A stretch of DNA of 63,819 bases, counting the filler, from Theionarchaea archaeon (GTDB lineage: Archaea; Methanobacteriota_B; Thermococci; Methanofastidiosales; SZ-28-30): assembly GCA_018992565.1 (NCBI GenBank). It is 3 parts of 3 records of this genome, joined end to end, with 100 filler letters (N's around TTAATTAATTAA, not from the genome) between each part and the next. Parts side by side here need not be neighbours in the genome. Positions count along the whole stretch, not along the records: positions 44,018 to 63,819 come from JACVGW010000053.1; 2 more parts are not named here. One strand, given 5' to 3'. Under the pieces are notes generated by a model, which ran no database searches, was not told where the DNA came from, and saw nothing but the letters and a program-made list of their open reading frames with translations. The position numbers and the translations under genes were made by a program. This document shows, piece by piece, positions 2,070-63,819 of this stretch (position 1 is its first letter; each line of letters begins with the position of its first letter).

Positions 2070-2192
2070 AAGCAGGTTAGCTTTCCCTTTGGCCATATAA
2101 GATACCGATCCATAGTGAGACCAGAAGGAGAGCCTTCAACTGATCAACTAGTGGCCCTAGTCATACTGACCCAACTATTGCCCACGTAACCC

Positions 2193-6357: not shown

Positions 6358-6726
6358 TCAAAAGAGTCCACTCTCCAGCATGATATCATGAGGATCTTGT
6401 TTTTCATATTTCTCAACGCGTATTGGGGTCTTTCTACGGGGTTTTCTTTTCAGATCCTGGTATAGGAAATAATGAAACAACAGCAGAGCGCAATAGGCCA
6501 TGAAAATGAAAATGGCCGCGGGAAAGGATTCAGACTCTAAATAGCCCAGATGAAACAGAAGGAAGACGAGAACCCAGGCCACAACACTCAGAACTGCACC
6601 TGCTGGAAAGCAGGTCACTTCAAGATCTTTCATGAACTCTATGTGATCATCCATTTCTTTGAATAAAGGCTTCAGCCGGGGATAGTCCTTCTTCTTCAAT
6701 GGACGGCTCTGCTCAGTTGAAGGCAT
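6358..6726 (-). CDS. Hypothetical membrane protein (2 TM)
   Basis: GGTGG RBS-like element and two hydrophobic helices. Confidence 0.6.
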   Translation of the reverse strand: MPSTEQSRPLKKKDYPRLKPLFKEMDDHIEFMKDLEVTCFPAGAVLSVVAWVLVFLLFHLGYLESESFPAAIFIFMAYCALLLFHYFLYQDLKRKPRRKTPIRVEKYEKQDPHDIMLESGLF

Positions 6727-7031
6727 GGTACCACCAGATCACTTTTGCAGTCTGTATACTTAACCGTTCTGGGTTGCAGACTGATCCCGCATGCACTGCA
6801 GGTGTAGCAAGAGATCTCTACAGATGTGATCCATGCATCATGGTCCTGATAATAAGCTAGCATATTACACAAAAGTATCCATTTTCACGCTTAAAAACTA
6901 TAAATATACGGAACACAAAGAGGGTCACATCTCTCGATACTACCGGGGAGCATGATACATGCTCAATCCAATCGAGAGACAAGCCCTACCTGAATATAGT
7001 GGAGATTGAGGCAGGACTTGGAGGTGAAAAC

Positions 7032-7511
7032 ATGAATAAGAAGAAAATGGCTGCTTCCCTCTGTGTTATCGGTGCATTCTGCATCGTAGCACTCGCAACG
7101 GTCGGTCCTCTTGCAGCAGGATCCCCTTTGTACATCTTTAGAATGCAGCAGGTCAGCAATCAGAGAAACTTCTTTCCCGGGCACGTGGCAGGATTCACCT
7201 ATAGTACGGAGAGAGGATGTACCATGAATATGGGAGGTGTCACATGCTGCGGAGTGAGTCCTTTTGATATCAAGACTCAGCGTGACACAGAATGTAGTGA
7301 AACATGCTTCAGCACGTGTCCAATAACCTGCGAAACATGTTCTTCTACCTGTGATTACACCTGTCCTTCTACCTGTGACGACGAGACCTGTCCGTCTACG
7401 TGCTCCGAAACCTGTGGCAATACGTGCGAGTACACCTGTGATGATCCCACCTGCGAATCGACCTGTGAACAGACATGCCACTACACATGCGACAAGCCAT
7501 GTCAGCCCTGA
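7032..7511 (+). CDS. Secreted Cys-rich repeat protein with a (CxxT)n tail; candidate radical SAM/RiPP target
   Basis: GGAGGTGA RBS 4 nt before ATG 7032, signal peptide MNKKKMAASLCVIG..., 18 Cys in the C-terminal repeat, T-rich tract after the stop. Confidence 0.85.
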   Translation: MNKKKMAASLCVIGAFCIVALATVGPLAAGSPLYIFRMQQVSNQRNFFPGHVAGFTYSTERGCTMNMGGVTCCGVSPFDIKTQRDTECSETCFSTCPITCETCSSTCDYTCPSTCDDETCPSTCSETCGNTCEYTCDDPTCESTCEQTCHYTCDKPCQP

Positions 7512-7520
7512 ACAAGTATG

Positions 7521-7570
7521 TCTTTTCCTCCCTCTCTTTTCCTTTTCCTTTTTCATTTCACCTTTTTCTG
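7521..7570 (+). terminator. Pyrimidine/T-rich archaeal terminator
   Basis: Repeated TTTTCC and TTTT tracts right after the stop at 7511. Confidence 0.5.
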
Positions 7571-7666
7571 TGAGGTTCCATAGACATGCTCTTTTGTCTC
7601 TTCCTGTGAAGGACCACCCCTGAAAGTCTGAAAAGGGGCAGCGAATCAACAATTCTTGCCATAATG

Positions 7667-7715
7667 TCACAACAAATCACATGAGATCACATCTATTCAC
7701 AAAAAGATTTTTAAA
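7667..7715 (+). promoter_or_regulatory. Four TCACA direct repeats at 10-bp period abutting a BRE/TATA
   Basis: TCACA at 7667, 7677, 7687 and 7697, then AAAAGA-TTTTTAAA (TATA at 7708-7715). Confidence 0.55.
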
Positions 7716-8027
7716 CTGTAAAATTCCTCGTTAAAGTGGTCCGGGATTTCTCGGTAGGGAGGTTTCTCGGCCTAATAGGAAAGAAAACAGCTCGATCAGG
7801 AGGAAGTGCTCCCTCAGGATGACAGAGAAAGGCTGGAGAGAGGGAATTACAGACTCTCCATAGGTAGTTCACCTCAAGACCCTCTCCAGCCTTAGATTTT
7901 TGTGTTGAGAATTGCAGTATTCCTGTCAGTGAAATGAGAACCTCTTGTATTCTCACAGGGGTTGACAACCCATATCATTTTATAGACTTACCCCCATGAA
8001 GGGATGGTTTAGTCATGAGGGAACCCA

Positions 8028-9128
8028 ATGAACAAAAAGGTCGGAATCATTGCAGACAGGCTCAACAGGACTCTAACTGGTGTAGGAACCTATGTGTACC
8101 ACCTGGTAAGAGAACTCTCAAAGACAGAAGATATCTCTCTCATTACCTATGAGGACCCCTCACTGCCCTTTGACGTGCCCACGGTGATCATGAATCCGTT
8201 GGGGCTTTTTTCCAGTAAGTCTCTTTACCTCTGGCACTTCTATGTGAATGGGGCTCTACGCCGTACAACTGAATTTGACATACTCCATTCACCTGAGAAT
8301 GCGGCTCTGGTGGCTCCAGTGAAGTGCAGGAAGGTGGTGACCATTCATGATCTGATCCTGTACCTGTTTCCCCAGTATACGGGCCTCCTTCATAGCATTC
8401 GGTATAGAATGCTTCCCTGGACCATAAAGACTGCAGATCGTATTATTGCTGTGTCCCAGAGCACGAAACAGGATCTTGTAACACGGGTTGGGGTACCCCA
8501 GCACAAAATCACGGTTATCTACCCCGGAGTGGGCCCAGAATTCAGGCCCTGTGATCCTGATATCGTGAAGAAGACAAGAGATAAATATCATCTCAACACA
8601 CCAGTTATCTTGTACACGGGCACACTGGCTCCTCACAAGAATGTTTCAACACTGGTCACATCCTTCAAGAGACTGAAGGAATCCGGGATGCCTCACTCCC
8701 TGGTCCTGACAGGAGTAAAAGGGTGGAGGTACAAGCCGGTGCTCGAGACAATTCAGAGACTGCACCTGGAAAAGGATGTTCTTTTCACAGGATACATTCC
8801 GTATGAAGATATGCCAGGCATGTACAGTGCTGCAGATCTGTATGTCTATCCTTCACTGTATGAGGGGTTCGGGCTCCCTGTGGTTGAAGCCATGGCCTGC
8901 GGATGTCCGGTAGTGGCGTCCAACGTGTCCTCGTTACCTGAAGTGGTGGGAGACGCGGGAGTCCTGGCCGCCCCAACAGTGGACGAGCTGGCTACCAGTA
9001 TGCAGGAGATACTCAGAGACGAGAGTCTGAGAAATGAGTTATCTCGAAAGGGACTGGACCGGGCCTCGAAGTTCACCTGGAAAAAAACAGCTGTTGAAAC
9101 AAGAAAGGTATATGAAGAATTAGTATAG
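8028..9128 (+). CDS. Glycosyltransferase family 4
   Basis: [30 protein letters not shown]. Confidence 0.95.
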
Positions 9129-22745: not shown

Positions 22746-24149
22746 ATGGATATCTGCGAAAAGTATCTGCAGGATGCACGAAGAGCCCTCAAGAGTTCAA
22801 TGTTTTCAAAGCCCGACCCTGTGGAAGCTATTAGAAGCTATGAAGGAGCTGCCCAATGTTTTGAGAACGCCCGCAACTTTGAGAGGGCAGCTGAGTGCTA
22901 CGTGGAGACTGCTGAAATGGTACAGCGTCAGGATCCATTGAAGGCGGCTGAGATGCATGAGAGAGCAGCTGCTTGCATGGAACGAGCAGGAGCTTCTCCC
23001 AAAGAGTATTACCTCCGCGCAGCCGACGTTTTTAAAGATCATGCCGTTACTATCTACAGGGACAATCCTGATAAAGGACTCCAGTTGCTCCAGAGAGCAG
23101 CGGATGACTTTGAAAAGGGAGGGGACACTGATACAGCTGTTCAGTGCTATGAAGTCGGAGCTAAGGCATCATTGAACCGGAAGGACTATTTGAATGCAGT
23201 GGTATTTTATGGTATTGCAGGCCAGCACTTTGAAAAACGTAAAGAGTATAAGAAGGCAGTAAAATACTACCATGAGGTAGCAAAACTTTGGGATATCCAA
23301 AAAGTGCCCGAAAATGTGGCTGAAAACTATCTGAGAATGGCTTCATGTCTGGAAGCGCTCAAAGAGTTGAAATATGCCAGTCAATTCTATACAAATGCAG
23401 GAGAGAAGTACGAACAGGCCCGTGAGATATACAAGGCTGCCAAAGCACATGAAAAAGCGGCGGAATCAAGAGAATCGGAGGAAGGTTTTCTAGATGCATC
23501 TCAATCTTATAAGACGGCCGCCGAATTAATAAAATCCTTGAAAAACATGGAGAAGTTCGAGGAACTCTATGGCAAGGCAGCTGACTGCTACGTGAAGGCA
23601 GGAAAACCGTCTGAAGCAGTTGAGCTGCGGCTGGCACTGACAGAGATCTTTGCTGATGATTCGTACCGGTGCAGCAAGCACTTCGAGAAAGCCATAGCGT
23701 CTGTTGAAGATGATCCTCATTTGAAGGGTGAACTTTTGCGGAAACAGGGAGATGTTCTCCTTGGTATCCATGACTACCTGAGAGCAGCCAGGAGTTACAA
23801 GGAGGGTGCTGAACTTCTGGAACGTATGGGGGAACCTGCCAAAGATGCCTTCAAGAAGGCTGGAGACAGCTACGTTCTCTATTTCAAAAGCATGGCCAAG
23901 GTAAAGAACCAGGAAATGATGCAGGAAGGACAGGAAAGTGCTGCCTATTGCTACGAGAAGGCTGGGCTGACAGAAGAGGTAGAAAAAGTTCGTCAGCAGG
24001 CCAGGCCTGACACGAAGGAACGTGAGAAGCAGATCGCAGAAGAGCTAGAAAGGTTGCGAGAGGACTTTGAGAAAGGTCTGCTCAATCGCTTGCACTACCA
24101 GCAAATACGAGAAGCGTATCAAGACCTCCTGAAAAACCTCAAGCAGTAA
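22746..24149 (+). CDS. TPR/alpha-SNAP-like repeat protein with SHOCT-like C-terminus
   Basis: Repeated A..Y..AA..F/Y helices (FERAAECYVETAE, KAAEMHERAA). TATATAA about 24 nt upstream suggests a leaderless ATG at 22746. Confidence 0.75.
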   Translation: MDICEKYLQDARRALKSSMFSKPDPVEAIRSYEGAAQCFENARNFERAAECYVETAEMVQRQDPLKAAEMHERAAACMERAGASPKEYYLRAADVFKDHAVTIYRDNPDKGLQLLQRAADDFEKGGDTDTAVQCYEVGAKASLNRKDYLNAVVFYGIAGQHFEKRKEYKKAVKYYHEVAKLWDIQKVPENVAENYLRMASCLEALKELKYASQFYTNAGEKYEQAREIYKAAKAHEKAAESRESEEGFLDASQSYKTAAELIKSLKNMEKFEELYGKAADCYVKAGKPSEAVELRLALTEIFADDSYRCSKHFEKAIASVEDDPHLKGELLRKQGDVLLGIHDYLRAARSYKEGAELLERMGEPAKDAFKKAGDSYVLYFKSMAKVKNQEMMQEGQESAAYCYEKAGLTEEVEKVRQQARPDTKEREKQIAEELERLREDFEKGLLNRLHYQQIREAYQDLLKNLKQ

Positions 24150-25464
24150 TGCCCATGTCTTCAACTCGCATATGTGGGAGAACCATTCTGGGGAATCGAG
24201 CTCTGTCTTTGGAGATAGCTGTTATCTTGGTGAGGAGTTCATAGACATTTCCGGCTATTGCCACTTCTTTTACTGGATTCTTGATTTCTCCTGAAGAAAT
24301 GAGTTGAGCTCCTTTCAGTGCGCCAGAGAAATCTCCTGAAATGTGATCAGCAGTCCCGCTGAACCGGGGCACCAGCAGTCCTTTTTCGGTTTCTTCAACT
24401 AGAGCATCCACATCGTGCATCCCGGGACTGATGAGGAAATTCGTGATTCCAATTTTTGGAGTCTCCCTGAAGGTGCCTATTGCATTCCCCGTAGACACAG
24501 TGGTTTCTCTGTGAGCAGCAAGGGCGTCATACAGGAACGTGGTGAGAACACCTCGTTCAACCAGGGTTACAGCTTGATGAGGAGAACCTTCTCTATCAAA
24601 TGCACTGGAATTAAAGTCTCCCTTCACGGTAGCATCATCCTTGATGGTCACCACCTCAGATGTGAGAACGTCTCCCTTCCTTCCTGCAAGCACAGACTGT
24701 CCTCTCTGTGCATTGTTGGCATTGAGAGCAGAGATGAGGGGGTCCCCAACAAGAGCAGAAACAGCATCAGGGCCCAAAATGATGTCACCTCGAAACGGCT
24801 CCACTTTCTGGGGAGAGAGGTTGGCTGCTGCCCGATGGCTCAATTCACTTCCTGAATCTTCCACGTATATGTCTCTTACCCGAGGCGTACATCCATACAC
24901 GTATTCAAATGATCCCACATCTCTGTTTTTTCTTGCGATTCCAATCATATACCAGGAAACAGCAGATTTCTTCTCTATAGCAGAAATACCTCGGGAGGTA
25001 CATACTGCCTGGGTTCGAAGGGTTACATTGAATTCCCCGCTGTCTACAGTGACTTGAGGATCTTCTGCTGCAGCGTGTATCATCCGCTGCGCAGCAGAAA
25101 TGGCGTCTTCTTCACTGAAGGAAAGCATTTCATCATCAAACAATCCCTCTATTTCAGGATAACTGCCCGGAACAGCCAATGGACTCCAGAGAAGTGGATT
25201 ACTCCTCTTGGACATCTTTACGGACGTTTCTACTGCCTCTGTGATGGCAGCAAAGTCTAGTGTGTTACAGCATGAAAATCCCACACTCCGATCCACTACC
25301 GTCCTCACTCCGATACCTGCTGATTTCTGCTTAATGCAAAGCATTATATCATTTCTTTCTACTGTAACAATAATCTCCTGTCTTTCCACACCATATACCT
25401 CTCCCTCAGCACCTTTTTTTTCACAAAGAACTAGAGTTTTTTCCAAAGTGTCCTGCATATCCAT
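24139..25464 (-). CDS. pmbA: TldE/PmbA-family protein
   Basis: GIGVRTV, FDREGSP, STGNA, SGDFSG, IAGNVYELL; directly downstream of tldD. Confidence 0.9.
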   Translation of the reverse strand: MDMQDTLEKTLVLCEKKGAEGEVYGVERQEIIVTVERNDIMLCIKQKSAGIGVRTVVDRSVGFSCCNTLDFAAITEAVETSVKMSKRSNPLLWSPLAVPGSYPEIEGLFDDEMLSFSEEDAISAAQRMIHAAAEDPQVTVDSGEFNVTLRTQAVCTSRGISAIEKKSAVSWYMIGIARKNRDVGSFEYVYGCTPRVRDIYVEDSGSELSHRAAANLSPQKVEPFRGDIILGPDAVSALVGDPLISALNANNAQRGQSVLAGRKGDVLTSEVVTIKDDATVKGDFNSSAFDREGSPHQAVTLVERGVLTTFLYDALAAHRETTVSTGNAIGTFRETPKIGITNFLISPGMHDVDALVEETEKGLLVPRFSGTADHISGDFSGALKGAQLISSGEIKNPVKEVAIAGNVYELLTKITAISKDRARFPRMVLPHMRVEDMGITA

Positions 25465-25465
25465 G

Positions 25466-26830
25466 CTATCGCCCTCCAACCAAGACCTGGCAGCGCAGCA
25501 GAGGACCACCTCCATCCACCTTTGCCAGCTGCTGCTTTCCGCATGCCCCAAATCCCATGTCAAACACCACTCTTGAACCTGCAGCATCAACTGTTCCAAG
25601 TACATCGAAGGCATTTCCTGTCATAGATACGCTGCGCAGCAATTCCTTCTCTTCCCCTCCGTCAATGGTGTAGGCTTCCTTTACCTGAAACATGAATTCT
25701 CCATTGGAGTCTGCCTGACCTGATCCCGCTCCCTTCAACATATATCCCGTTTTGGTGTCTTGGAGAATTTCTTCCTCTTTCCAATCTCCTTTTTGAATAT
25801 ACGTATTTCTCATCCTGATCAAGGGCTCAAAATCATACTCCCACGCCCGCGCATTGCCGGTGGGCTCTGTGTCCATGAGATATGCTGTCTCTCTGTTATG
25901 CATGAAGTTTCTCAAGAATCCGTGGTCTATCAACACAACATCTCGGCACTCAACACCTTCATCATCCACGGGAGTCCATCCCCCTGCATGGGTCTGGCCA
26001 GAGTCTATCATAGTCACCAGCTCTGACGCCACCTTCTCACCTACCAGATCTTTGGTTACAGCACCACTCAGAGCAAAATCTGCTTCCATAGTATGACCCA
26101 CTGCTTCGTGACATAAGAGCCCGACCAGCCCGTGATCCAGGATCACTGTGGTTTTTCCCCCTTTGGGATAGTGTGCGTTCATCAGCTCCTTAGCTGTATT
26201 CACAGCTTTATCTACCATCAATTCGGGCGACCGCTCAATTATGATCTCCCATCCTCCAGTATTACCCACTGCGTCTGTGTAGGAAACCAGGTTACTCCCT
26301 GTACCTGCTACTGCACCAACGTAGAATTGCACTTTGGAATCTGTGACAAGAGCATGCGACCCGTGAGATGTGATGACTTCCTTGCTGTCAACCAGTTCCT
26401 GATAGTGAATGAAAGAGCTCTTGATTTTCTCATGTGAGAGGACTGCAGTGTCTGTGCTCTTGCAGAGGTCAATCTTCTCTTCAAGGCTGTGGTCTAGGAC
26501 TGAATCTTGAACGCGAGCTTCAAAGGTGCCAGTTACAGGGACAGCCTCTTTCAGGTAGGTCTGTTGATTCTTCTTCCTGGAAGCAGCCTCAGCCATTTCC
26601 ACTGCTACGCACAATGCGTCATGGAGAGCCTTCCCCTCGGTGGAATTCACAGATGAGAAGCCCCACGCACCGAGATGAAGAACCCGAATACCCACTCCAG
26701 AATATAGTTCACTGGTAATATCTTCAAATTCACCCTTTCGAATGGTAATCTGGTTCTTCTTTCTCTGATGGAAGCGGGCCTCCGTGTAGTTTGCAGGTGA
26801 TGTATCCACCACTCTTTCCAGTGCATCCAT
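25466..26830 (-). CDS. tldD: TldD-family metalloprotease
   Basis: HEAVGHTMEAD, DDEGV, TGNARA, IRMRNTY, CGK.Q. Confidence 0.95.
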   Translation of the reverse strand: MDALERVVDTSPANYTEARFHQRKKNQITIRKGEFEDITSELYSGVGIRVLHLGAWGFSSVNSTEGKALHDALCVAVEMAEAASRKKNQQTYLKEAVPVTGTFEARVQDSVLDHSLEEKIDLCKSTDTAVLSHEKIKSSFIHYQELVDSKEVITSHGSHALVTDSKVQFYVGAVAGTGSNLVSYTDAVGNTGGWEIIIERSPELMVDKAVNTAKELMNAHYPKGGKTTVILDHGLVGLLCHEAVGHTMEADFALSGAVTKDLVGEKVASELVTMIDSGQTHAGGWTPVDDEGVECRDVVLIDHGFLRNFMHNRETAYLMDTEPTGNARAWEYDFEPLIRMRNTYIQKGDWKEEEILQDTKTGYMLKGAGSGQADSNGEFMFQVKEAYTIDGGEEKELLRSVSMTGNAFDVLGTVDAAGSRVVFDMGFGACGKQQLAKVDGGGPLLRCQVLVGGR

Positions 26831-26877
26831 GTGGTAAGGGAGTACCATCGGGTATAAAACATTTGTGATGACTGTTG

Positions 26878-53977: not shown

Positions 53978-54520
53978 TCTGATGGGAACCCGTGATCTGT
54001 CAGACAATGGGCTTCAATTCATAATGGATATTCTGTACAATTTTTACATTTCCACAAATTGAAAAGTCGATATCTATAAAGCAAGGTGGGCCTGTTTTGG
54101 AGTTTTCCTTCTTTTGGAAGGTCTTTCCTTCGATCTCTTTCGAGTTCGAATTCCGCTCGCATCAACACGAAGTCTTTGCGTGCACTCCTTACAGACCCAT
54201 CCTTTATATTCTGCCTTGATATATAAATCTTTCGGTTCAATGCTGTTAGAGTTAATTAATACTAAAAAGAAATTTCCACTGGAACTTTCCTGGCTATTGC
54301 TGTATGTAAATAAAGTTGATTTAGATTATCTTTCATTATTCCTATTTTCGATTGAATTGTCACAGAAATATCTTTTTGACAAGCGAAAAGATGTGTTGTT
54401 CCCATTTCTTTCTTGATACTTGGATGCACAGAAAGAGATTCTCAGATCACGATCTCGAGTGGTGCAGCCCTCATTTTGTATCAGTGAATGATAAGAGAGA
54501 GGAAGAAAAAACCTCACTTG

Positions 54521-55780
54521 CTAGAGCTCCTTCCACTTAGTGATCTTCACTGCAATAACCATCATCACTGCTGCAAAGCATCCCAGCACCACAAACGCCA
54601 TACCTGCATTTCCGGGGTTCTCATACACCATGATCTGAAGCAGCCCATCGTGGAAGTAGTGAAGAGGAAGCACCCTGGCAACTTCCTGTAAATATCCCGG
54701 CATCTGTTCAATAGGCCAGAAGGCACCAGACAAGAACATCATGGGAAAAGCAATTGCATTGCCCGCGCCCGAAGCAGCTTCCACATCCTTAATCACACCT
54801 CCCAGAACCATACCCACACTGCAGAACGCCACAGCACCCACGAGAATTAACAACAACGCATATGCGTCAGGTATGAGCCTCACATCAAAAATAATCCAGC
54901 CCAGAGCAATCATCACTCCAGTCAGAATAAACGCCAGCACTGTCTGTTCCAGCACATTTGCGAGGATCCAGCTGATCTTGGGCAAAGGAGTTGTAGCCAG
55001 CCGTTTCACCTGACCGTTTCTCCGGTATTCAGAGATTGTGGTGGTGGCCCCAATGATCCCATTGGTCATGATAAAGGCAGCGATAAATCCGGGTAGAAAA
55101 TAGTCCACTACCTTCATCGTCCTCTGCTCCAGCGGCATTCCCTCAATTGTAAGGACTTCCTCACTTCCCACCAGCCCATTACTGAAAGCATTTGCCACCC
55201 CGTGTATGATTCCCAATAAAGCAGGGGCTGCCATGTCCTGTTCATCCATTAGCAATACCAGCTGAGGACTCTCTCCTCCTTGACTGCCCAGCATAGTCTG
55301 AAGCGCCAGTTCACCTCTCTGTATCCCTTCAATATCCTCAGGGCTCATGTATGCTGCAAACTCTTCTCCCACAACCTCAAGCGTACTCACTGTTACCTTG
55401 ACCTTAACAGACACCGTCTTTTCAGCCGCCTGTTCATGGAACCCTTTTGGGATCATGAGAATTCTGTATCTGAACGAAAAAGAAGGATTCAACCTCACAT
55501 ATTCCTTAATATCCACATCATGCTCCAGGCTCCTTACATCAAAAGCACCAGTTGCCTTCAAAGCCTCCACGAATCCCTGAGACAATTCAGTGGGATTATC
55601 GTTGCTATCCACGTCCAGGTTCTGAACAAAGAGCACATACTGGCTGTTCCCTCCTCCGCCAAATACAGTACTAAAAATGATCAGCAGCATTATGGGAAAC
55701 AGGAACGAAAAGAATATACCTGCCTTGCTCCTCATCCAGCTTTTTAACAAAGCAGAAAACACTGCCATGACTCCTCTCAT
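54521..55780 (-). CDS. ABC-2 type exporter permease
   Basis: FFSFLFP, DYFLPG, KRLATTP, FLSGAFWP. Confidence 0.93.
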   Translation of the reverse strand: MRGVMAVFSALLKSWMRSKAGIFFSFLFPIMLLIIFSTVFGGGGNSQYVLFVQNLDVDSNDNPTELSQGFVEALKATGAFDVRSLEHDVDIKEYVRLNPSFSFRYRILMIPKGFHEQAAEKTVSVKVKVTVSTLEVVGEEFAAYMSPEDIEGIQRGELALQTMLGSQGGESPQLVLLMDEQDMAAPALLGIIHGVANAFSNGLVGSEEVLTIEGMPLEQRTMKVVDYFLPGFIAAFIMTNGIIGATTTISEYRRNGQVKRLATTPLPKISWILANVLEQTVLAFILTGVMIALGWIIFDVRLIPDAYALLLILVGAVAFCSVGMVLGGVIKDVEAASGAGNAIAFPMMFLSGAFWPIEQMPGYLQEVARVLPLHYFHDGLLQIMVYENPGNAGMAFVVLGCFAAVMMVIAVKITKWKEL

Positions 55781-56700
55781 ATTAATTCACCTCGCTCATC
55801 AACCCGTCCGCCTGCAAGCCGGGAGAACACATTGTCCATACTGGGCTCAACAATATCCAAGCGATATTTCTCATCCAGCTGGTACAGGGCGGCCAGAGTT
55901 TTTGCCACCTGAGTCCTCTCTTGGAAAACACCCTCCATGGCGCTGTCTTCTGTGATAACTCTCTGTGCAGTCTCCATTAGAATCGTCTCTATTTCCTCAT
56001 TGCAGGGCGATACTCTGATCCTGATTCCTCCACCATATGCAGAAATCAATTCGTCAATGCTCCCCTGGGCAATAATCTCGCCACCAAACATAACTGCCGC
56101 CCGATCACTCAACTGCTCCACTTCTTCCATATAGTGGGATGTCAACACCACCGTCTTCCCCATGCTCTTCAACCGTCTGATGACCTCCCACGTTTCCTTT
56201 CTGGCTTGAGGATCCAATCCGGTGGTAGGTTCATCCAGGAATAGGAGGACAGGGTCATTGATTAATGCCATACAGATACCTACTCGTCTTTTCATTCCTC
56301 CAGATAACGACTCAAAGTGTCGGTCTCTGGCCTCCCACATTCCCAGTTCCTCAAGGACACTGCGCAGATCAGGGTTCACCTGATAGATGCTGGCGATCAA
56401 TTCCACATTCTCTCTCACAGTCAATCTCTCAAAAGCATTGAAGTCCTGGGGCATGACCCCGATCCTCTTCTTGATTTCATCCTCTTCCCGGGTGACATCA
56501 TATCCCAGAACGGAGGCTTTTCCACTGGTGGGTGCCCTCAAACACTCCAGAATTTCCACAGTAGTAGTCTTGCCTGCTCCATTAGGTCCCACAAGAGAGA
56601 AAATCTCTCCCTTATTGACGGTGAATGAAACGTCATGTACTGCTATGACTGGTTTGTATTTCTTTACCAGGTTCTCAACGCATATGACTTCTTCAGACAT
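55777..56700 (-). CDS. ABC exporter ATP-binding protein
   Basis: GPNGAGKTT, LSGG, FLDEPT, TSH. Confidence 0.96.
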   Translation of the reverse strand: MSEEVICVENLVKKYKPVIAVHDVSFTVNKGEIFSLVGPNGAGKTTTVEILECLRAPTSGKASVLGYDVTREEDEIKKRIGVMPQDFNAFERLTVRENVELIASIYQVNPDLRSVLEELGMWEARDRHFESLSGGMKRRVGICMALINDPVLLFLDEPTTGLDPQARKETWEVIRRLKSMGKTVVLTSHYMEEVEQLSDRAAVMFGGEIIAQGSIDELISAYGGGIRIRVSPCNEEIETILMETAQRVITEDSAMEGVFQERTQVAKTLAALYQLDEKYRLDIVEPSMDNVFSRLAGGRVDERGELI

Positions 56701-57117: not shown

Positions 57118-58254
57118 ATGGATGAACCTGCTTCTTTCGTTGAAGCACCTGGCTCGGATATTTCTGGACATCCTTTCACCATGCAGTTTGAAATCACAAG
57201 CAGGTGCAACCTGAGATGTACTCACTGCTATGATGAATCTGAGTCCCATAAGGACATGCCGCTTTCCCAGGTCAAGAGCGTCATAGAAAGGTTGCTGGGC
57301 TTCTGCAGGCGGTGGAAGAGGACACCCATTTTGTGGCTCACTGGAGGTGAACCCACACTCCATCATCACTTCTGGCAGATACTTGATTATATTGAGACCC
57401 AGAAATCAGGTACTCAAGTTGCCCTCCTGTCCAATGGAATCAACCTTACCAGTGACATGGTAGATGCTCTAACGGATTATCCAGCCCTGCAGTACATACA
57501 GATCAGTATTGATGGGGCCTGTGCTGAAACCCATGATGCTATCAGAGGTACAGGTTCATTTGACAAAGCCACAGAAGCCCTGAAACTACTTGCATCAACC
57601 CCTATAGAAACCCATATCCACTATGTGGTGCACAAGAAAAACTACCACGATGCATTCAAGATGACTGATCTTGCAAGGGTGTTGCAGGCAGATGTCCTGA
57701 CTGTCACCAGGCTTGTTCCCTGGGGAAGGGGAAAGGACCTCTTTCAGCACATGCTGAGCCCAGAGCAGGTTTACACTCTTTTCAGGAAGTTGAGTGACGA
57801 TTTTGATGCCATATCCTCTGAGAGCCCACCAAGGCCCCATATTGCACGCAGTCGATGTGACTGGCCTGTGATTTATTCCGACCCATCCACTCCTGAAGCA
57901 CTTACTAAGAACGGATCGAGATGCTGCGCAATCCATTCTTACATTAATGTCACAGAGACCGGAGACGTCTATCCCTGCCGGAGATTGCCCATCACAATAG
58001 GTAACATCTTGACCCAGGACCTTTCACAGATCTGGCAACATCCCCTGTTGTGGAAACTCCGTCAGAAAGACAAATTCGTCCAGGGCAAGTGCAGGGATTG
58101 TTACTTCTGTGTAAAAGCTCCTGAGGTGTGCAGTGGCGGTGCATCCTGCATTGCATATGCAGTGTACAATGATCCTTTCCAACCAGACCCACAGTGTCCT
58201 GTAACGCCATCTGAAGGACCTGCAAGTCTCGGCAGCGTATCAGGAGATCCATGA
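57118..58254 (+). CDS. Radical SAM/SPASM protein (paralog A)
   Basis: CNLRCTHC, TGGEP, SPASM C..GDVYPC..CRDC..CSGGASC..DPQC. Confidence 0.95.
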   Translation: MDEPASFVEAPGSDISGHPFTMQFEITSRCNLRCTHCYDESESHKDMPLSQVKSVIERLLGFCRRWKRTPILWLTGGEPTLHHHFWQILDYIETQKSGTQVALLSNGINLTSDMVDALTDYPALQYIQISIDGACAETHDAIRGTGSFDKATEALKLLASTPIETHIHYVVHKKNYHDAFKMTDLARVLQADVLTVTRLVPWGRGKDLFQHMLSPEQVYTLFRKLSDDFDAISSESPPRPHIARSRCDWPVIYSDPSTPEALTKNGSRCCAIHSYINVTETGDVYPCRRLPITIGNILTQDLSQIWQHPLLWKLRQKDKFVQGKCRDCYFCVKAPEVCSGGASCIAYAVYNDPFQPDPQCPVTPSEGPASLGSVSGDP

Positions 58255-58278
58255 GCACTCCATCCAAGAAAGGTCACG

Positions 58279-59667
58279 TTATTTCTGTAATTCGAGAATT
58301 TTCCTGACGAAAAATGGTACTCCATACGAAACAAAAGCCTTATAATTGTCACAATCAGCCCTGTAGATGTCTCCATGTTCCAAATACGCCCTGTAGGCAC
58401 AGCCTCCCCCACATAACAGTGCCAGTTCACATTCTCTGCACTCTGGAATGGACAAAACATCACGGTTGAACCACTGGTGATACTTTTCGTTGAACTCCAG
58501 CTGGGGTACAAATCGTCCTATTGAGAACTCAGTGTCTCCCACAGCTCTGGGACAGGAATAGATGTCCCCAAATAAATCAAATCCAAACCCCTTACAATGT
58601 GCAGAGCAGTAGAATGGGCGTGGGACAATATCCTCCCCTGTAGTCAGGGCATGGGATAGGAACCCCTTTTTCATGTACGTCCATTCATACAGCATCACCT
58701 CGAACACCCGTGGCTCTTTCTCTCTCAAATCGAGAATCCTCCTTGCCATCTCAGTGTAGGAAAGAAAGGAAGGAGAACTCATGCCTTTCCCCTCAAGAAC
58801 AAGGGCGATGGAGAACGTGATGTTGTCACGGTGTGCCCATCCGTGGGAAGTTATCCATTCAGCAAATTTCGGGAGATGTGAGAGGTTGTCTTCATCTACA
58901 TTGACTCTCACTCCTATTCGAATGCCTGCATCGAGGGCTTCCTCAATTCCCCTGACGATGTTGTCAAATGTTCCACTCCCATCTTTTTTTCTGCGCCTTT
59001 GATCATGCACCTCTTTGCATCCATCAAGTGTAACGCCCAGTCCGGTAACCTCATGTGAAGAAAGGAGTGGCACAAACTGCTCCAGGAAGTATCCATTGGT
59101 ATTTGCATGGAAGGTATAGTCCTTCTTATCTCCGTGATCAAGTATGTATTGTACTATAGACAATGTTGAAGGCAAGAATGGTTCTCCACCATAGAGAGAA
59201 AGCAGAGTGACACCTTCTAGTTCAGGTATGTTCTCAATGGCGCGAAAAGCAGCATTTACAGTTTTTTCATCAATTACAGCATTCATCCACTTTGCGCCTC
59301 TCGAGAGGAGATGATCAGTCCAGCAGTAGGTGCAGCGCATGTTACACTGGTAGGTTACACTAATGGAAGCAGTCGGCTCTCCTGAAGCCTTCTGGGCATT
59401 GTATTTTTCCATTAGAAGTTCCTTTTCCTCCAGTTCTGTCAGTGAGGTAATGAATCCATATTCTTTCAGTAATGAGAGGGTTGAGGGAGTCCCACAAGGA
59501 AAGGATGCGAGAGTGCTGTATTCTTTCTCCTCCAGTATTGCCACTTTCCCACTGAGAGGATTACAGATAAGATAGAGTGGATCTTCTGACGCGGTAATTT
59601 CAGAGGAAAGAGGAATAACAACATTGTGACTGCTAGTCCTAGCCATGGAGATGTCTTTCACCTTCAA
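58279..59667 (-). CDS. Radical SAM/SPASM peptide maturase with N-terminal RRE-like region
   Basis: N-terminal YLICNPLSGKVAIL..LKEYGFI, CNMRCTYC, YGGEP, SPASM YC..GDIYSC..CRECELALLCGGGC..C. Confidence 0.93.
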   Translation of the reverse strand: MKVKDISMARTSSHNVVIPLSSEITASEDPLYLICNPLSGKVAILEEKEYSTLASFPCGTPSTLSLLKEYGFITSLTELEEKELLMEKYNAQKASGEPTASISVTYQCNMRCTYCWTDHLLSRGAKWMNAVIDEKTVNAAFRAIENIPELEGVTLLSLYGGEPFLPSTLSIVQYILDHGDKKDYTFHANTNGYFLEQFVPLLSSHEVTGLGVTLDGCKEVHDQRRRKKDGSGTFDNIVRGIEEALDAGIRIGVRVNVDEDNLSHLPKFAEWITSHGWAHRDNITFSIALVLEGKGMSSPSFLSYTEMARRILDLREKEPRVFEVMLYEWTYMKKGFLSHALTTGEDIVPRPFYCSAHCKGFGFDLFGDIYSCPRAVGDTEFSIGRFVPQLEFNEKYHQWFNRDVLSIPECRECELALLCGGGCAYRAYLEHGDIYRADCDNYKAFVSYGVPFFVRKILELQK

Positions 59668-59910
59668 CAGATCACCTTGCAGGTACGGATATGACTATGA
59701 GGTACTGTGTACATGGAATATTTAAGTATTAGCATTGACGAGAGTGCCGCTTGTGATCGCAGACACGTGCATTGCACATTTCATTTGAGGACGACTACCT
59801 TCTCATGCGCTGAAATAAGTGAGAAAAGCTTTCCGAATATCATTGGAAAAAGAGAACGCCAGCGTTGTTCGAGAAGGTATTGTTTGTAAATCTTCCTCAG
59901 TCTGAAACCA

Positions 59911-59922
59911 AAAGATTTATAT
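59911..59922 (+). promoter_or_regulatory. BRE/TATA for the candidate precursor gene
   Basis: AAAGATTTATAT, the same motif seen at the promoters near 42777 and 46229. Confidence 0.6.
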
Positions 59923-59957
59923 GGTTGTTGAGTACATATAAGACAGAAACAGAGGAG

Positions 59958-60113
59958 GTGAGATGTACGCACGTAATACCCAAGGTCTGGAAAGGAATTG
60001 TCGTCACCACGGGTGAAGTACAAACCAATGCCGTTATTCAGAACCCACGCGGTTACTGCTGTGGCGGCTGTGGTAGCGGCTGCAGTTTTGCTGGTGCAAC
60101 TGGATGTAAGTAA
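59958..60113 (+). CDS. Candidate RiPP precursor peptide (~48-51 aa) with Cys/Gly-rich core
   Basis: (M)RCTHVIPKVWKGIVVTTGEVQTNAVIQNPRGYCCGGCGSGCSFAGATGCK; own TATA and GGAGGTGA element; flanked by rSAM/SPASM genes. Start codon ambiguous. Confidence 0.75.
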   Translation: MRCTHVIPKVWKGIVVTTGEVQTNAVIQNPRGYCCGGCGSGCSFAGATGCK

Positions 60114-60386
60114 CGACAGCTGAGCGGTATCCAGTTGACGTTGGTAGAGAAGAAATGGAACCTACACTCTAATGGAGAGACTACTCCATGTAGCAGGTTC
60201 TGCTTCAGCTTAGGGGAACTTCTGGAGGGAAAATCCTCCCGGAATGATGCCACGTTAATGGGTATTTGATCCCTAACTTCGAATGGTAGTCTAACAAAGG
60301 TTCCAGAGGAGGACTCTGAACACTGATGTAGTGGACAATTCGAGTCTTCTAAAGGGGGAATTCATAGAGGTCTTCAGACGAGCTAT

Positions 60387-61025
60387 TCATTTCCTCCGTG
60401 AGGCCAGTACTCTGATCAAGTCGTGTGCATGGGGGTCGCCGTGTGTAACATCCTCTTGCCGGAACCTTTCTATTTCTTCCAGATACATAGGGGCCAAGAG
60501 GTCCTCCAACTCATTCATGGTATAGTAGTGAAGGCAGAGCCCATCAGGATGTCTGACATTGTGATTTCCCATAGGTGTTCCTCCTGTCATTCCTTCATCA
60601 TCATCAGATAAAACCATGAAGAGCATAATACCGTCTTTCTCAACTACTCTGAAAATCTCCGAAAACGCGTGCTTTCTCTCAGGTTCATCGATGAAGAAAT
60701 TCATCATCATGAGACTGGTGGCAGCCCCAAAGCTTTCATCACGGAACGGAAGGAAGAGAGCATCTGCACAGACGACATCCATGTGACCGCGGATGAGGAT
60801 CCTTGAGGCTTCCTTGAGGTATTGAACAGCTTCTGAGGAATAGTCCGCACAGGTTACTCTGAATCCAAGCTGGGCGAGACTCCTGGAAGAGGAACCGTAG
60901 CCACTCCCTATATCCAGGATTGTGCTAATGCTGTTTTCAAGCAGTCTTCGTAGAAACCGCATATCGACTCCTGGCTCCTCTTTCTTGAGTGTGCTCAGCC
61001 AGTGATCCCAGTACGTCCGGGTCAT
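60387..61025 (-). CDS. Class I SAM-dependent methyltransferase
   Basis: ILDIGSGYG, ADYS, ADALFLPFRDESF. Confidence 0.92.
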   Translation of the reverse strand: MTRTYWDHWLSTLKKEEPGVDMRFLRRLLENSISTILDIGSGYGSSSRSLAQLGFRVTCADYSSEAVQYLKEASRILIRGHMDVVCADALFLPFRDESFGAATSLMMMNFFIDEPERKHAFSEIFRVVEKDGIMLFMVLSDDDEGMTGGTPMGNHNVRHPDGLCLHYYTMNELEDLLAPMYLEEIERFRQEDVTHGDPHAHDLIRVLASRRK

Positions 61026-61164
61026 AAAGAATCTACTTCAGGGCACTTAATAAACATAATGAAATGATCTCGCAAGAGCCTTCTACCCCTTCGTCTTCAG
61101 CAGAAAGGGCATTTAGAACCAAACGTTTTTATTCATTCTTTTAGATACCCTTTCAGGTGATACC

Positions 61165-61614
61165 ATGGAACCTCATGACCTNNNNNNNNNNNNNNNNNNN
61201 NNNNNNNNNNNNNNNNNNNNNNNNNNNNNNNNNNNNNNNNNNNNNNNNNNNNNNNNNNNNNNNNNNNNNNNNNNNNNNNNNGTAACCTCCATGATACAGA
61301 GCCTCTCTCAAGATGGGTTTCTGGTCCTGCATGAGACTCCCACTGTGGTGGATTTGGATCTTGAAGGGACTGCTTTCCCCTGGCGCAGCGACGATGCTAT
61401 CGCCAACGTAGTGGAAGACAACTTCGTGATCATGAATATGCTCACCAGTGAAGCTTTTTCTTTCGAAAGAGATGTTGAGACTCTATGGAATATTTGTGAT
61501 GGTCATCATGCTGTAGATGACATTCTATCTGCCGCTGCAAGTACTGCTGACGTTGAATATCTCATCAAGTTTCTTCTTAAGCTGGGATTGATTGAACTGA
61601 GACCCGCTGAATAG
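61165..61614 (+). CDS. PqqD/RRE-domain protein (spans an N gap)
   Basis: VVEDNFVIMNMLTSEAFSF..LWNICDGHHAVDDIL..FLLKLGLIE. A preceding LSQDGFL segment suggests a tandem RRE. Confidence 0.75.
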   Translation: MEPHDXXXXXXXXXXXXXXXXXXXXXXXXXXXXXXXXXXVTSMIQSLSQDGFLVLHETPTVVDLDLEGTAFPWRSDDAIANVVEDNFVIMNMLTSEAFSFERDVETLWNICDGHHAVDDILSAAASTADVEYLIKFLLKLGLIELRPAE

Positions 61615-61624
61615 AGATGATGGC

Positions 61625-62740
61625 ATGAATGATTCATCTTCTCCACAAGAGGTTCACCCCCAAGGAGGTGAATACTATCATCAGTTCTCTCTTCAATTTG
61701 AGATTACGGGCAGATGCAACCTGAGATGTCTCCATTGCTATGATGAATCTGAACCCCACAGGGATATGTCACTTTCTAAGGTTAAGACCGTGATTGACAA
61801 GTTTCTTGCATTTTGCTGGAGATGGAAGAGGCTTCCTGCTCTGTGGCTCACTGGAGGTGAACCCACACTGCATCCTCACTTCTGGGAGATTCTGGACTAC
61901 ATACAGGAGCATATGCCTGAGGGGTACGTGGCAATTCTCACCAATGGAGTTGTCGTGACGGAGGAATTTGTGAAGAATCTCCAGACATATGATATGAGTA
62001 CCTGTGTGCAGATCAGCATTGATGGGGCCTGTGCTGAAACCCACGATGCTATCAGAGGCACAGGTTCATTTGACAAAGCTACAGAAGCCCTGAAACTACT
62101 TGCATCAACCCCTATAGAGACCCATATCCACTATGTGGTGCATAAGAAAAACTACCACGATGCATTCAAGATGACTGATGTAGCTCGTATCATGGGGGCA
62201 GATGTCCTGACTGTCAGCCGGCTTGTCCCGTTGGGAAGAGGGGAGGCATTGGTTGATGCCATGCTGAGTCCTGAGCAAATCAAGATCCTCTACCGAAAAT
62301 TGAGTGATGACCTGGATTGTATCCTGATGCAGAACCCTCCAAAACCCTATATCGCACGCCATCGATGTGATTGGCCTGTCATCTACTCTGACTCCTCCAG
62401 TCCTGAAGCACTTGCTAAGAATGGGCATGCCTGTGCGGCAGGGCAGTCTTACATTAATGTCATGGAAACAGGAGATGTCTGTGCATGCAGGCGAATGCCC
62501 ATCCGTGTGGGGAATATCTTTGAAGAAGATTTCATGCAGATCTGGCAGCACCCCCTGTTATGGAAGCTCCGTCAGAAGCGATTATTCGTCCAGGGTAAAT
62601 GCAGGGATTGTTTCTTCAGCATGAATGCTCCCAGTATCTGCAACGGAGGTGCATCCTGCATTGCGTATGCCGTATACAATGATCCTTTCCAGCCAGACCC
62701 ACAGTGTGCAGTTCAACCCTCATCATCGGGAGGTGAATAA
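61625..62740 (+). CDS. Radical SAM/SPASM protein (paralog B)
   Basis: CNLRCLHC, TGGEP, SPASM C..GDVCAC..CRDC..CNGGASC..DPQC; close paralog of 57118-58254. Confidence 0.95.
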   Translation: MNDSSSPQEVHPQGGEYYHQFSLQFEITGRCNLRCLHCYDESEPHRDMSLSKVKTVIDKFLAFCWRWKRLPALWLTGGEPTLHPHFWEILDYIQEHMPEGYVAILTNGVVVTEEFVKNLQTYDMSTCVQISIDGACAETHDAIRGTGSFDKATEALKLLASTPIETHIHYVVHKKNYHDAFKMTDVARIMGADVLTVSRLVPLGRGEALVDAMLSPEQIKILYRKLSDDLDCILMQNPPKPYIARHRCDWPVIYSDSSSPEALAKNGHACAAGQSYINVMETGDVCACRRMPIRVGNIFEEDFMQIWQHPLLWKLRQKRLFVQGKCRDCFFSMNAPSICNGGASCIAYAVYNDPFQPDPQCAVQPSSSGGE

Positions 62741-63367
62741 ATGGAAGTACGTCATGCAATACAAGAGAGAAGAAGTATCAGGAGGTTTAAATCGGATGCC
62801 GTCCCTGTTGCAGATATTGAGAAAATGGTATATGCTGCCTCCCTGGCACCCAGTGGAGGGAATATGCAACCATGGCAATTTCTGGCTATTACCAACAAGG
62901 AATGCAGAGACGCTCTGGCCCGGATCATCCATGATGAGGGCGTGAAGTTCTCTCATGATATGGGCCAGGCAATGCCGCACTTCATTGTAACATCTCTGGT
63001 CTTTACCACAGCGCCCCTGGTCTTTGCAGTCATGATGACGCCCTTCCCACTGGAAGAAGACAGCTGGTTTCAGGCATTCAGGAAACGCAAAAACCTTGAG
63101 GGACGCAGCATTGACAGGTATGGCGGGTTTGTCAGCGTGATGGGAGTAGCAGCAGCCATTGAGAATCTATTGCTGACAGCTTATGACCTCGGGTATGGTT
63201 CATGCTGGGTTCGTATTCCATACTATGCCAAGGATGCGCTGGAGAGGTTTCTTAACATTGAAGCTCCTCGAGAACTTGTAGCATTACTACCTGTAGGCAT
63301 TGCAGATACCAATCCTAGAATGCCTCCCAGGAAGCCTATTCAGGATATTTTCGCCCTGGTAGAGTAG
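62741..63367 (+). CDS. Nitroreductase-family flavoprotein
   Basis: RRSIRRF, APSGGNMQPWQF, ENLLLTAYDLGYGSCW; GGAGGTGA RBS; abuts the rSAM B stop. Confidence 0.93.
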   Translation: MEVRHAIQERRSIRRFKSDAVPVADIEKMVYAASLAPSGGNMQPWQFLAITNKECRDALARIIHDEGVKFSHDMGQAMPHFIVTSLVFTTAPLVFAVMMTPFPLEEDSWFQAFRKRKNLEGRSIDRYGGFVSVMGVAAAIENLLLTAYDLGYGSCWVRIPYYAKDALERFLNIEAPRELVALLPVGIADTNPRMPPRKPIQDIFALVE

Positions 63368-63399: not shown

Positions 63400-63819
63400 T
63401 CATTCTTCCTGTAGGGCTCTCAGCCTGTATGGGATATACGTACTGAGGATTCGAGGATAGTCTTCACAAATACCATTGAAAAGAGATCCGCGTTCCAGAC
63501 TCTCTGCAGGGCAGCCCCCTCTACAAATCAGGGCATACTCACATTCCATGCATGAAGGTATATTGAGAACTGTGCGGGACTTCAATATACCAAGTTGATT
63601 CTCATTTGCTGAATACTCTGGGAAGAACCTGCCAATGGGATATGAATTCATTCGTATGCAGGGATATATCAGTCCATCCGGGCTGAAAAAGAAATTCCTA
63701 TCCAGCCTGCATCTATATCTCGATATTTCTGGTGTCTTCCCTGAAAGAATATCGTCAAAATATTCTGATCCAGGAAAAAACACATCAAAGTATGATAGAA
63801 GGTTGTGCCTCTCCAGCAT
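63400..63819 (-). CDS. Radical SAM/SPASM protein, C-terminal part (truncated at window edge)
   Basis: C..PDGLIYPC..IGRFFP..CMECEYALICRGGC..C; resembles the 58279-59667 SPASM domain. Confidence 0.85.
   Translation of the reverse strand: MLERHNLLSYFDVFFPGSEYFDDILSGKTPEISRYRCRLDRNFFFSPDGLIYPCIRMNSYPIGRFFPEYSANENQLGILKSRTVLNIPSCMECEYALICRGGCPAESLERGSLFNGICEDYPRILSTYIPYRLRALQEE

Follow-up and report, generated by a model that had tools for sequence, protein, structure and literature searches.

Peptides modified by radical S-adenosylmethionine (SAM) enzymes are well studied in bacteria and hardly in archaea. The SCIFF peptides matured by CteB are bacterial and come from Clostridia. Archaeal peptides that are made by ribosomes and modified after translation (RiPPs) and that depend on radical-SAM enzymes are described as predicted but uncharacterised in one paper (PMC12144867). 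Work of 2026 on the Methanococcus voltae enzyme CrpC, whose family is represented by the model TIGR04463, showed that it forms ranthionine links on CrpA, a Cys-rich protein (PMC13692751). CrpC and CrpA were the only worked archaeal thioether case in the literature that we searched, and nothing in that literature linked Theionarchaea to biosynthetic gene clusters. Here we describe a short gene for a Cys- and Gly-rich peptide in a 63,819-base stretch of DNA (the window; 45.7% G+C) from an uncultured Theionarchaeon. The gene lies beside that for rSAM-B, a radical-SAM/SPASM enzyme with an N-terminal domain resembling a RiPP recognition element (RRE). We propose that the peptide is a true member of a previously undescribed family, with a leader of the form M-x3-K-x-W-K-G-I and a Cys/Gly-rich core ending in Cys-X, and that it is a precursor modified by rSAM-B, probably through thioether chemistry; we give this reading a probability of about 0.65. 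The precursor assignment is supported by the results below. The thioether bridging we infer because such bridging has been shown for CteB and CrpC, the nearest characterised relatives of rSAM-B.

The CrpA/CrpC pair (PMC13692751) resembles the window locus in several respects: it is archaeal, its enzyme joins an RRE to radical-SAM and SPASM domains with three clusters, the gene of its substrate adjoins that of the enzyme, and the substrate begins with a leader-like segment and is rich in Cys at its C-terminus. CrpA, however, is described there as large, with ten repeats of 17 residues each and with C-x-x-Q/D motifs, whereas the peptides of the window family are 44–57 amino acids long, contain CGCC-type runs and have no such motif. 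CteB (PDB 5wgg/5why) is the best solved relative of rSAM-B by both sequence and fold, and the SCIFF precursor is likewise short, with a leader and several Cys near its C-terminus. CteB is nevertheless only 18–19% identical to rSAM-B, and the loci described here differ in having multi-copy precursors and up to four radical-SAM genes per cluster. The models for PapB/freyrasin and for the CefB "Cys-every-fifth" system (NCBIfam NF047865 and NF038107) are the second and third best matches of rSAM-B (about 118 bits), and the Cys of their substrates are regularly spaced, but neither Cys-x3-Asp nor every-fifth spacing occurs in the window family. Finally, TIGR04340 of the ACGX-repeat system is the best model for two other radical-SAM enzymes of the window, rSAM-A1 and rSAM-A2, and the family's cores are rich in C-G steps; both enzymes, however, score below the cut-off of 400 and no peptide match was obtained, which places the locus outside that system. 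The literature searched held no characterisation of the ACGX system. The window system appears to work like the SCIFF and CrpA type while belonging to no named family.

The window peptide and its relatives

The peptide gene lies in a 719-base gap between the rSAM-B gene and a methyltransferase gene and is divergent from the former (Table 1). Its Cys-rich frame, which can be opened at 59865 or 59958 on the plus strand and closes with a TAA stop at 60111–60113, translates to ...NAVIQNPRGYCCGGCGSGCSFAGATGCK. The tail of the 59958–60113 reading, GYCCGGCGSGCSFAGATGCK, contains 5 Cys and 7 Gly among its final 20 residues, with Cys3-x3-Cys7-x3-Cys11 spacing. Retranslation and the coordinates bear out what an earlier, sequence-only reading of the window had said of this tail and of its orientation relative to the radical-SAM gene. 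Cys-rich stretches of 20 residues (at least 4 Cys) are frequent in random frames of the window DNA, so Cys content alone is insufficient as evidence. Among the 752 stop-to-stop frames of at least 40 amino acids in the window, only the peptide frame has a tail with at least 4 Cys and 4 Gly in the final 20 residues. In 200 mononucleotide shuffles of the window, such tails arose in a mean of 0.055 frames per shuffle, and tails with 5 Cys and 5 Gly or with 5 Cys and 7 Gly arose in none.

Direct searches with the peptide identified no relatives. No Pfam or NCBIfam model matches it, a word-index search with the 51-amino acid peptide found nothing related, and neither the 82- nor the 51-amino acid reading of the gene is present in a collection of 5.8 billion proteins. 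An exhaustive phmmer search against 1.84 billion representatives returned six matches, all long repeat proteins (493–2149 amino acids) in which the leader was matched in 5–14 stretches. The two best proved on inspection to be unrelated tandem-repeat sequences, and the matches were set aside as sums of weak similarities.

Relatives of the peptide were found beside relatives of the enzyme. rSAM-B is 100% identical to the public record "MAG: radical SAM protein [Theionarchaea archaeon]", a 455-amino acid entry that starts seven codons later and covers 98% of the protein, and it has 25 relatives at 48–62% identity, several of them named Theionarchaea. Using an alignment of rSAM-B with its relatives (A1), we fetched loci from genome and metagenome collections. 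An rSAM-B orthologue of at least 47% identity was present at 12 places including the window, and in seven of these the available sequence upstream of the enzyme gene was 600 bases or longer (the window, L001, L072, L073, L075, L078 and L079). Cys-rich open reading frames (ORFs) with a common leader were found near the rSAM-B orthologue (47–62% identity) in six of the seven. They lie within 2 kb of it in the window, L001, L075, L078 and L079. L075 and L078 carry four and three copies in tandem (the former including MRRFRKSWKGIDIEETDGNPVHPAMIAIFCGCCGCCGCCCFVGWVGCM), L079 carries one, and the single copy in L001 belongs to a sub-type with the start MKALRVNKKLW. In L072 a single intact copy, which the overlapping locus L080 also shows, lies at a distance of 2.8 kb from the rSAM-B gene. 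No family member was detected by profile in the other 139 loci, which hold relatives at no more than 36% identity (best E 0.32). The peptides are thus encoded beside the maturase across genomes, often in several copies (6/7 loci, as against 0/139 distant ones). The sequence-only reading, which had called the gene a precursor, is upheld on this point by the homologous small ORFs next to orthologous radical-SAM genes.

Profile searches reached the same family. A profile built without the window sequence retrieved the window frame from 25,306 six-frame ORFs with 28.3 bits (E 1.6e-6); the next frame outside the family scored 9.7 bits. In the collection of 5.8 billion proteins, the family profile matched ten proteins of 32–57 amino acids at E <= 0.01. 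All those with an organism name are from Theionarchaea, and those with a protein name are all called "hypothetical protein". Annotation thus misses these genes or labels them hypothetical. One public gene call, P0126 (ENA, 202 amino acids), fuses two tandem L075-type peptide genes and their spacer into an artefact that hides the mini-genes.

Family alignments comprised 11 sequences and later 17 (A4). In the larger alignment, K and W of the leader are invariant (K-x-W, mostly K-[SV]-W-K-G-I) and K-G is nearly so. Two core Cys are invariant and one nearly invariant. The Cys cluster is in most cases followed by an aromatic residue, and every member has a Cys as its penultimate or last-but-few residue. 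Ten of the 17 members have the junction motif P-x-G-[Y/F/V]-C. The P-R-G/Y region, in which the sequence-only reading had placed a possible leader cleavage, forms part of this junction and is a candidate cleavage region. Core length and Cys count vary across the family while three Cys columns are kept, so that a conserved leader precedes a variable C-terminal core, as in RiPP precursors. Lack of homologues or of Cys conservation had been named beforehand as grounds for abandoning the idea; in the 11-sequence alignment, three of the five window core Cys fall in invariant columns. The CxxxCxxxC spacing, which had been taken as a mark of ranthipeptides, fared less well: the cores of relatives read CGCCGCCGCCC, with up to 10 Cys in about 20 residues, and the spacing is not a family feature. 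All seven equal-length paralogue pairs gave ratios of nonsynonymous to synonymous change (pN/pS) of 0.31–0.57, which indicates that the family is under purifying selection. Conservation across the 17 sequences and these ratios together show a conserved family of coding mini-genes of about 45–57 codons in Theionarchaea, to which the window peptide belongs.

rSAM-B resembles leader-dependent maturases

The CX3CX2C radical-SAM motif of rSAM-B (C108, C112 and C115) is invariant in 26 orthologues, and the Pfam Radical_SAM model matches the protein at 2.6e-17. Also invariant in these orthologues are seven SPASM Cys (C354, C372, C410-x2-C413-x5-C419-x3-C423 and C439), as expected of an enzyme with two auxiliary clusters, and rSAM-B aligns over its full length to NCBIfam SPASM maturase models. 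By sequence, the best solved relative is CteB (5wgg, 2.5e-21). The AlphaFold2 model (mean predicted local distance difference test score, pLDDT, 86; predicted template modeling score, pTM, 0.85) includes an N-terminal domain at residues 16–93 with strands at 16–20, 31–36 and 41–46 and helices at 47–54, 61–69 and 78–93, predicted with a pLDDT of about 90. These are the three strands and three helices of an RRE, as seen on the predicted structure only. A Foldseek search with the model placed CteB first (8e-22), and VIA-align superposed residues 12–458 of the model on residues 1–448 of the CteB chain (Z 25.3; root-mean-square deviation 4.2; 381 residues). The enzyme anSME, which is without the N-terminal domain, aligns to the model only from residue 97. 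Since the CteB alignment begins at residue 12 and that of anSME only at 97, the predicted fold shows the build of leader-dependent peptide maturases, with an RRE, a radical-SAM barrel and SPASM. The superposition of the N-terminal domain on the RRE end of CteB agrees with the earlier description of this enzyme as RRE-bearing. Prediction of a complex between rSAM-B (26-row alignment) and the peptide (11-row alignment) scored 0.02 against a mark of 0.32, a result that speaks neither for nor against binding.

In the mechanism that we propose, the leader would dock on the RRE of rSAM-B and the core would enter the active site. There, chemistry driven by the 5'-deoxyadenosyl radical would join the sulfur of a Cys to a carbon atom in a residue close by, generating thioether (ranthionine or sactionine) bridges. 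In the window and L072, the same peptide is probably tailored by the other enzymes of the cluster as well: two or three more of the radical-SAM type, a PqqD-like partner, a methyltransferase and a flavoprotein of nitroreductase type. In L075 and L078 the peptides are accompanied by rSAM-B only, and the available DNA of L075, L078 and L079 shows neither an rSAM-A nor a PqqD gene. Across the loci compared, rSAM-B is the constant partner of the peptide and the other enzymes are lineage-specific additions.

Promoter and possible expression of the window gene

When the ten family genes of the K-x-W-K-G-I type are aligned on the Trp codon, all ten have CC(A/G)AAA..TTATAT about 70 bases upstream, which we read as a B recognition element (BRE) and TATA box. 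The consensus CCRAAARNNTTATAT has two perfect matches in the window, one of them at 59908–59923 before the peptide gene. Allowing at most one mismatch, the window holds six matches compared with 0.28 expected, and none of 100 shuffles reached six. The matches that were checked (39662, 42773 and 59908) are each followed closely by an ORF start. The second perfect match (54221–54235, minus strand) points into the gap between a TrkA gene and an ABC permease gene; downstream of it there is no convincing ORF and no Rfam match, and a small RNA or mini-gene that annotation has missed may be expressed from it. No Rfam model matches anywhere in the window.

With the usual spacing of archaeal promoters, the transcript of the peptide gene is predicted to start near 59946. 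A Shine-Dalgarno sequence, AGGAGGTG, is nearly invariant in the ten genes and stands 5–6 bases before the start codon of the relatives. Because the BRE/TATA element and the Shine-Dalgarno sequence are conserved in all ten, the 82-amino acid call from the TTG at 59865 is unlikely and a start after about 59945 is supported. The sequence-only reading had rightly placed the promoter inside the 82-amino acid call and had preferred a 51-amino acid peptide; its start downstream of the promoter stands, and the exact start codon is doubtful, as the window has ACG at the start position of the relatives.

Contigs from a metatranscriptome library cover 60005–60218 (the core and 105 bases downstream), 60286–60461 and 58941–59096. 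DNA may be present in such libraries, and the uncovered majority of 58200–61100 proves nothing; the contig over 60005–60218 is a weak hint that the peptide gene is transcribed. The 274 bases between the peptide stop and the end of the methyltransferase gene (60114–60386), which are partly covered by these contigs, include a hairpin-like GGAGGG-AAAA-TCCTCC near 60224–60240, and no T-run terminator is evident there.

Weighing the alternatives

Several findings weigh against an rSAM-B-modified, thioether-bridged precursor. The best NCBIfam model for rSAM-B, TIGR04463, matches with E 6.5e-36 and 124 bits, far from its cut-off of 525. CefB and PapB follow at 118 bits each (cut-offs 600 and 340), the geopeptide maturase at 116 bits (cut-off 400) and the SCIFF maturase TIGR03974 at 86.3 bits (cut-off 425). 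With scores far below every cut-off, rSAM-B is a member of no named maturase family. The Pfam PqqD and SPASM models match 0 of 26 rSAM-B orthologues, so the assignment of both domains rests on motif, predicted structure and NCBIfam alignments. None of 11 family peptides matches any peptide model at E up to 10, SCIFF and ACGX included. Together with the enzyme scores, this leaves the SCIFF-type assignment made in the sequence-only reading unsupported. In L073, no family member lies within 2.6 kb upstream of rSAM-B, and a ferredoxin gene is found there instead. Many relatives have cores made almost only of Cys and Gly, with few of the Asp/Gln/Thr-type acceptors that known ranthisynthases use. 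To these are added the features of the start region, on which the strongest alternative is built.

This alternative holds that the window copy is a relic with a disabled start codon, untranslated or barely translated, and that the cluster acts on copies elsewhere in the genome. In the relatives, the start codon is seven codons before the Trp codon. The window has ACG at exactly this place, with the same Shine-Dalgarno spacing as copies a and b of L075. The residues T-H-V-I-P-K-V-W of the window align without gaps to M-H-P-F-K-K-V-W of the relative P0132, and His follows the start position in both. GTG at 59958–59960 is the only in-frame canonical start after the promoter and lies within the Shine-Dalgarno sequence, and a nearby out-of-frame ATG could compete for ribosomes. 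Three DNA metagenomes, each from a separate study, have contigs that reproduce 59803–60333 without substitution or indel. Because three independent assemblies agree, the ACG is genuine and fixed and does not stem from faulty assembly. For this reason, and because the gap-free alignment sets ACG on the ATG of the relatives, a frameshift or assembly error was rejected as the source of the out-of-frame ATG. With ACG at the start position, the window copy would have to use the GTG within the Shine-Dalgarno sequence, start poorly at ACG or be silent, and its translation is not assured.

A Cys-rich ORF in L072 (4545–4682, minus strand; …TKGISSIVPTGPLSYCGADPPPPPICCVSCCCGCCSASCGLI) occupies the position equivalent to that of the window peptide, divergent from rSAM-B. 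Five codons before its K-G-I there is a stop, and its ATG is one base ahead of the frame that holds the Cys, an offset also seen in the window. The ORF looks degenerate, or it could be read in an unusual way; if degenerate, the copy beside rSAM-B may be decaying in this lineage, with the intact L072 copy 2.8 kb away. Programmed +1 frameshifting, suggested by the shared offset of the ATG in the two loci, was dropped since no signal supported it. The window core, CCGGCGSGC, also has the lowest Cys content of the family's cores, and the family's lowest profile score is that of the window sequence. Set against a relic are the 48 intact codons after ACG, which retain every landmark of the family (KVWKGI, PxGYC, the Phe that follows the Cys cluster and the Cys in penultimate position). 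Moreover, the promoter is a perfect match to the consensus, an RNA-library contig covers the core, and no second copy was found within the 63.8-kb window. We consider a relic somewhat doubtful on this evidence.

The poor fit of cores made almost only of Cys and Gly to Asp/Gln/Thr acceptors leaves room for chemistry other than that proposed for rSAM-B. It is tempting to speculate that the poly-Cys/Gly cores, rather than serving as usual ranthipeptide or sactipeptide substrates, are converted by three classes of radical-SAM enzymes, a methyltransferase and a flavoprotein into a product dense in sulfur, which would represent a new class of RiPP restricted to Theionarchaea. Candidate products would be a ladder of bridges from Cys to the alpha-carbon of Gly, Cys-derived heterocycles or a scaffold for a metal-sulfur cluster, and as a side case the window copy would start at a non-AUG codon (ACG, or GUG in the Shine-Dalgarno sequence). 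We regard this proposal as unlikely.

If the peptide were mainly a substrate of rSAM-A and its PqqD-like partner, or of rSAM-C, the chemistry would not be thioether bridging; one example would be the conversion of Cys to thio-oxazole, which SbtM-type enzymes carry out. rSAM-A1 and rSAM-A2 match TIGR04340 best (165 and 158 bits) and match the SbtM model TIGR04082 as well (136–137 bits). The gene before rSAM-A2 encodes a free-standing PqqD-like protein, C-G steps are abundant in the cores, and the set of rSAM-A, PqqD-like protein, nitroreductase and methyltransferase is conserved between the window and L072. However, the L075, L078 and L079 peptides occur with rSAM-B and without an rSAM-A or PqqD gene in the available DNA, all rSAM-A model matches are far below their cut-offs, and no ACGX peptide model matches the family. 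A leading role for rSAM-A or rSAM-C thus seems improbable.

The high Cys density of the relatives, which reaches 10 Cys in about 20 residues, would also suit an unmodified, metallothionein-like peptide that binds metal or an iron-sulfur cluster and has radical-SAM genes as neighbours by position only. The family has instead the build of a modified-peptide precursor: its leader of about 30 residues is conserved and poor in Cys, its genes come in several copies whose cores vary, and they are tightly linked to a maturase that bears an RRE. These features render an unmodified peptide very unlikely. That the gene is no more than a frame left open by chance in an intergenic spacer, as the frequency of Cys-rich random frames and its absence from the public protein collection might suggest, is already refuted as far as sequence data reach by its unique tail among 752 frames and the shuffles without (5,5) or (5,7) tails, the leave-one-out profile match (E 1.6e-6), the conserved promoter and Shine-Dalgarno sequence, and a family pN/pS below 1.

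Read as precursors for rSAM-B, the 17 sequences, with their leader motif, junction motif and partner enzyme, add a testable family from an uncultured sediment lineage that is present in many sediment, mangrove and estuary metagenomes. Their very high Cys density raises the chemical question of which carbons accept sulfur. In the window copy, the lost start codon provides a natural experiment on non-canonical initiation in an archaeon. Supplements to the CrpA study list other archaeal Cys-rich proteins beside radical-SAM enzymes, which could bear on the novelty of the family (PMC13692751).

Neighboring genes

Table 1 Features of the peptide locus and its surroundings in the window
Feature	Position	Strand	Basis or remark
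rSAM-A1, radical-SAM/SPASM	57118..58254	+	Best model TIGR04340 (ACGX system), 165 bits, cut-off 400
rSAM-B, radical-SAM/SPASM with N-terminal RRE-like domain, proposed maturase	58279..59667	-	Motifs, AlphaFold2 model, homology
BRE (CCAAAAGA) and TATA box (TTTATATG)	59908..59923	+	Same element at same distance in 10/10 family genes
Shine-Dalgarno-like GGAGGTG	59954..59960	+	Shared with relatives; last three bases are GTG 59958-59960
Leader region	59958..60053	+	Family motif K-V-W-K-G-I at 59982-59999; junction P-R-G at 60045-60053
Out-of-frame ATG, 17-codon ORF (MYARNTQGLERNCRHHG*)	59963..60016	+	Register relative to relatives; could compete for ribosomes
ACG codon	59967..59969	+	Aligns with start codon of relatives (ATG 8/9, GTG 1/9)
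Core YCCGGCGSGCSFAGATGCK and TAA stop	60054..60113	+	Aromatic residue before first Cys, Phe after Cys cluster, penultimate Cys
SAM-dependent methyltransferase	60387..61025	-	Conserved in L072, 49% identity
PqqD-like (RRE) protein, 149 amino acids	61165..61614	+	N-terminal half masked by N at 61182-61281
rSAM-A2, radical-SAM/SPASM, paralogue of A1	61625..62740	+	72% identity to A1; TIGR04340 158 bits, cut-off 400
Nitroreductase-family flavoprotein	62741..63367	+	Conserved in L072, 63% identity
rSAM-C, C-terminal part, third radical-SAM/SPASM type	63400..63819	-	Cut by the window end

Common to the window and L072 are rSAM-B, the methyltransferase, the PqqD-like protein, rSAM-A (59% identity; two paralogues in the window), the nitroreductase-family protein and rSAM-C. 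L073 shares rSAM-B, rSAM-C and a PqqD-domain protein with the window. The rSAM-C fragment is 57% identical to the product of L072:1–1287 and 59% identical to that of L073:1–1140. No Pfam model matches the unmasked part of the PqqD-like protein. It is 48% identical to the product of L072:3333–3929, which is itself called PqqD by Pfam at 2.6e-13, and the PqqD protein named in the sequence-only reading is thereby supported.

In L073, the gene divergent from rSAM-B (2119–2568, minus strand) encodes a two-cluster ferredoxin-like domain that may donate electrons to the radical-SAM enzymes. L075 has a gene for a 676-amino acid YcaO-domain protein (6806–8836, minus strand) directly upstream of the fourth peptide copy (6416–6547, minus strand; GTG start), and the peptides of this organism may also undergo YcaO chemistry. 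Pairs of TldD/PmbA proteins process some modified peptides in bacteria. A TldD/PmbA-type metallopeptidase pair (24139–25614 and 25466–26848, both minus strand) lies about 33 kb from the cluster in the window. The window also contains an ABC-2 exporter pair (54521–56700, minus strand) that was not seen in L072. The rSAM-A1 and rSAM-A2 genes, 4,510 bases apart, share DNA blocks of 75–84% identity, and over one stretch of about 56 residues their products are identical, which points to possible gene conversion between the two.

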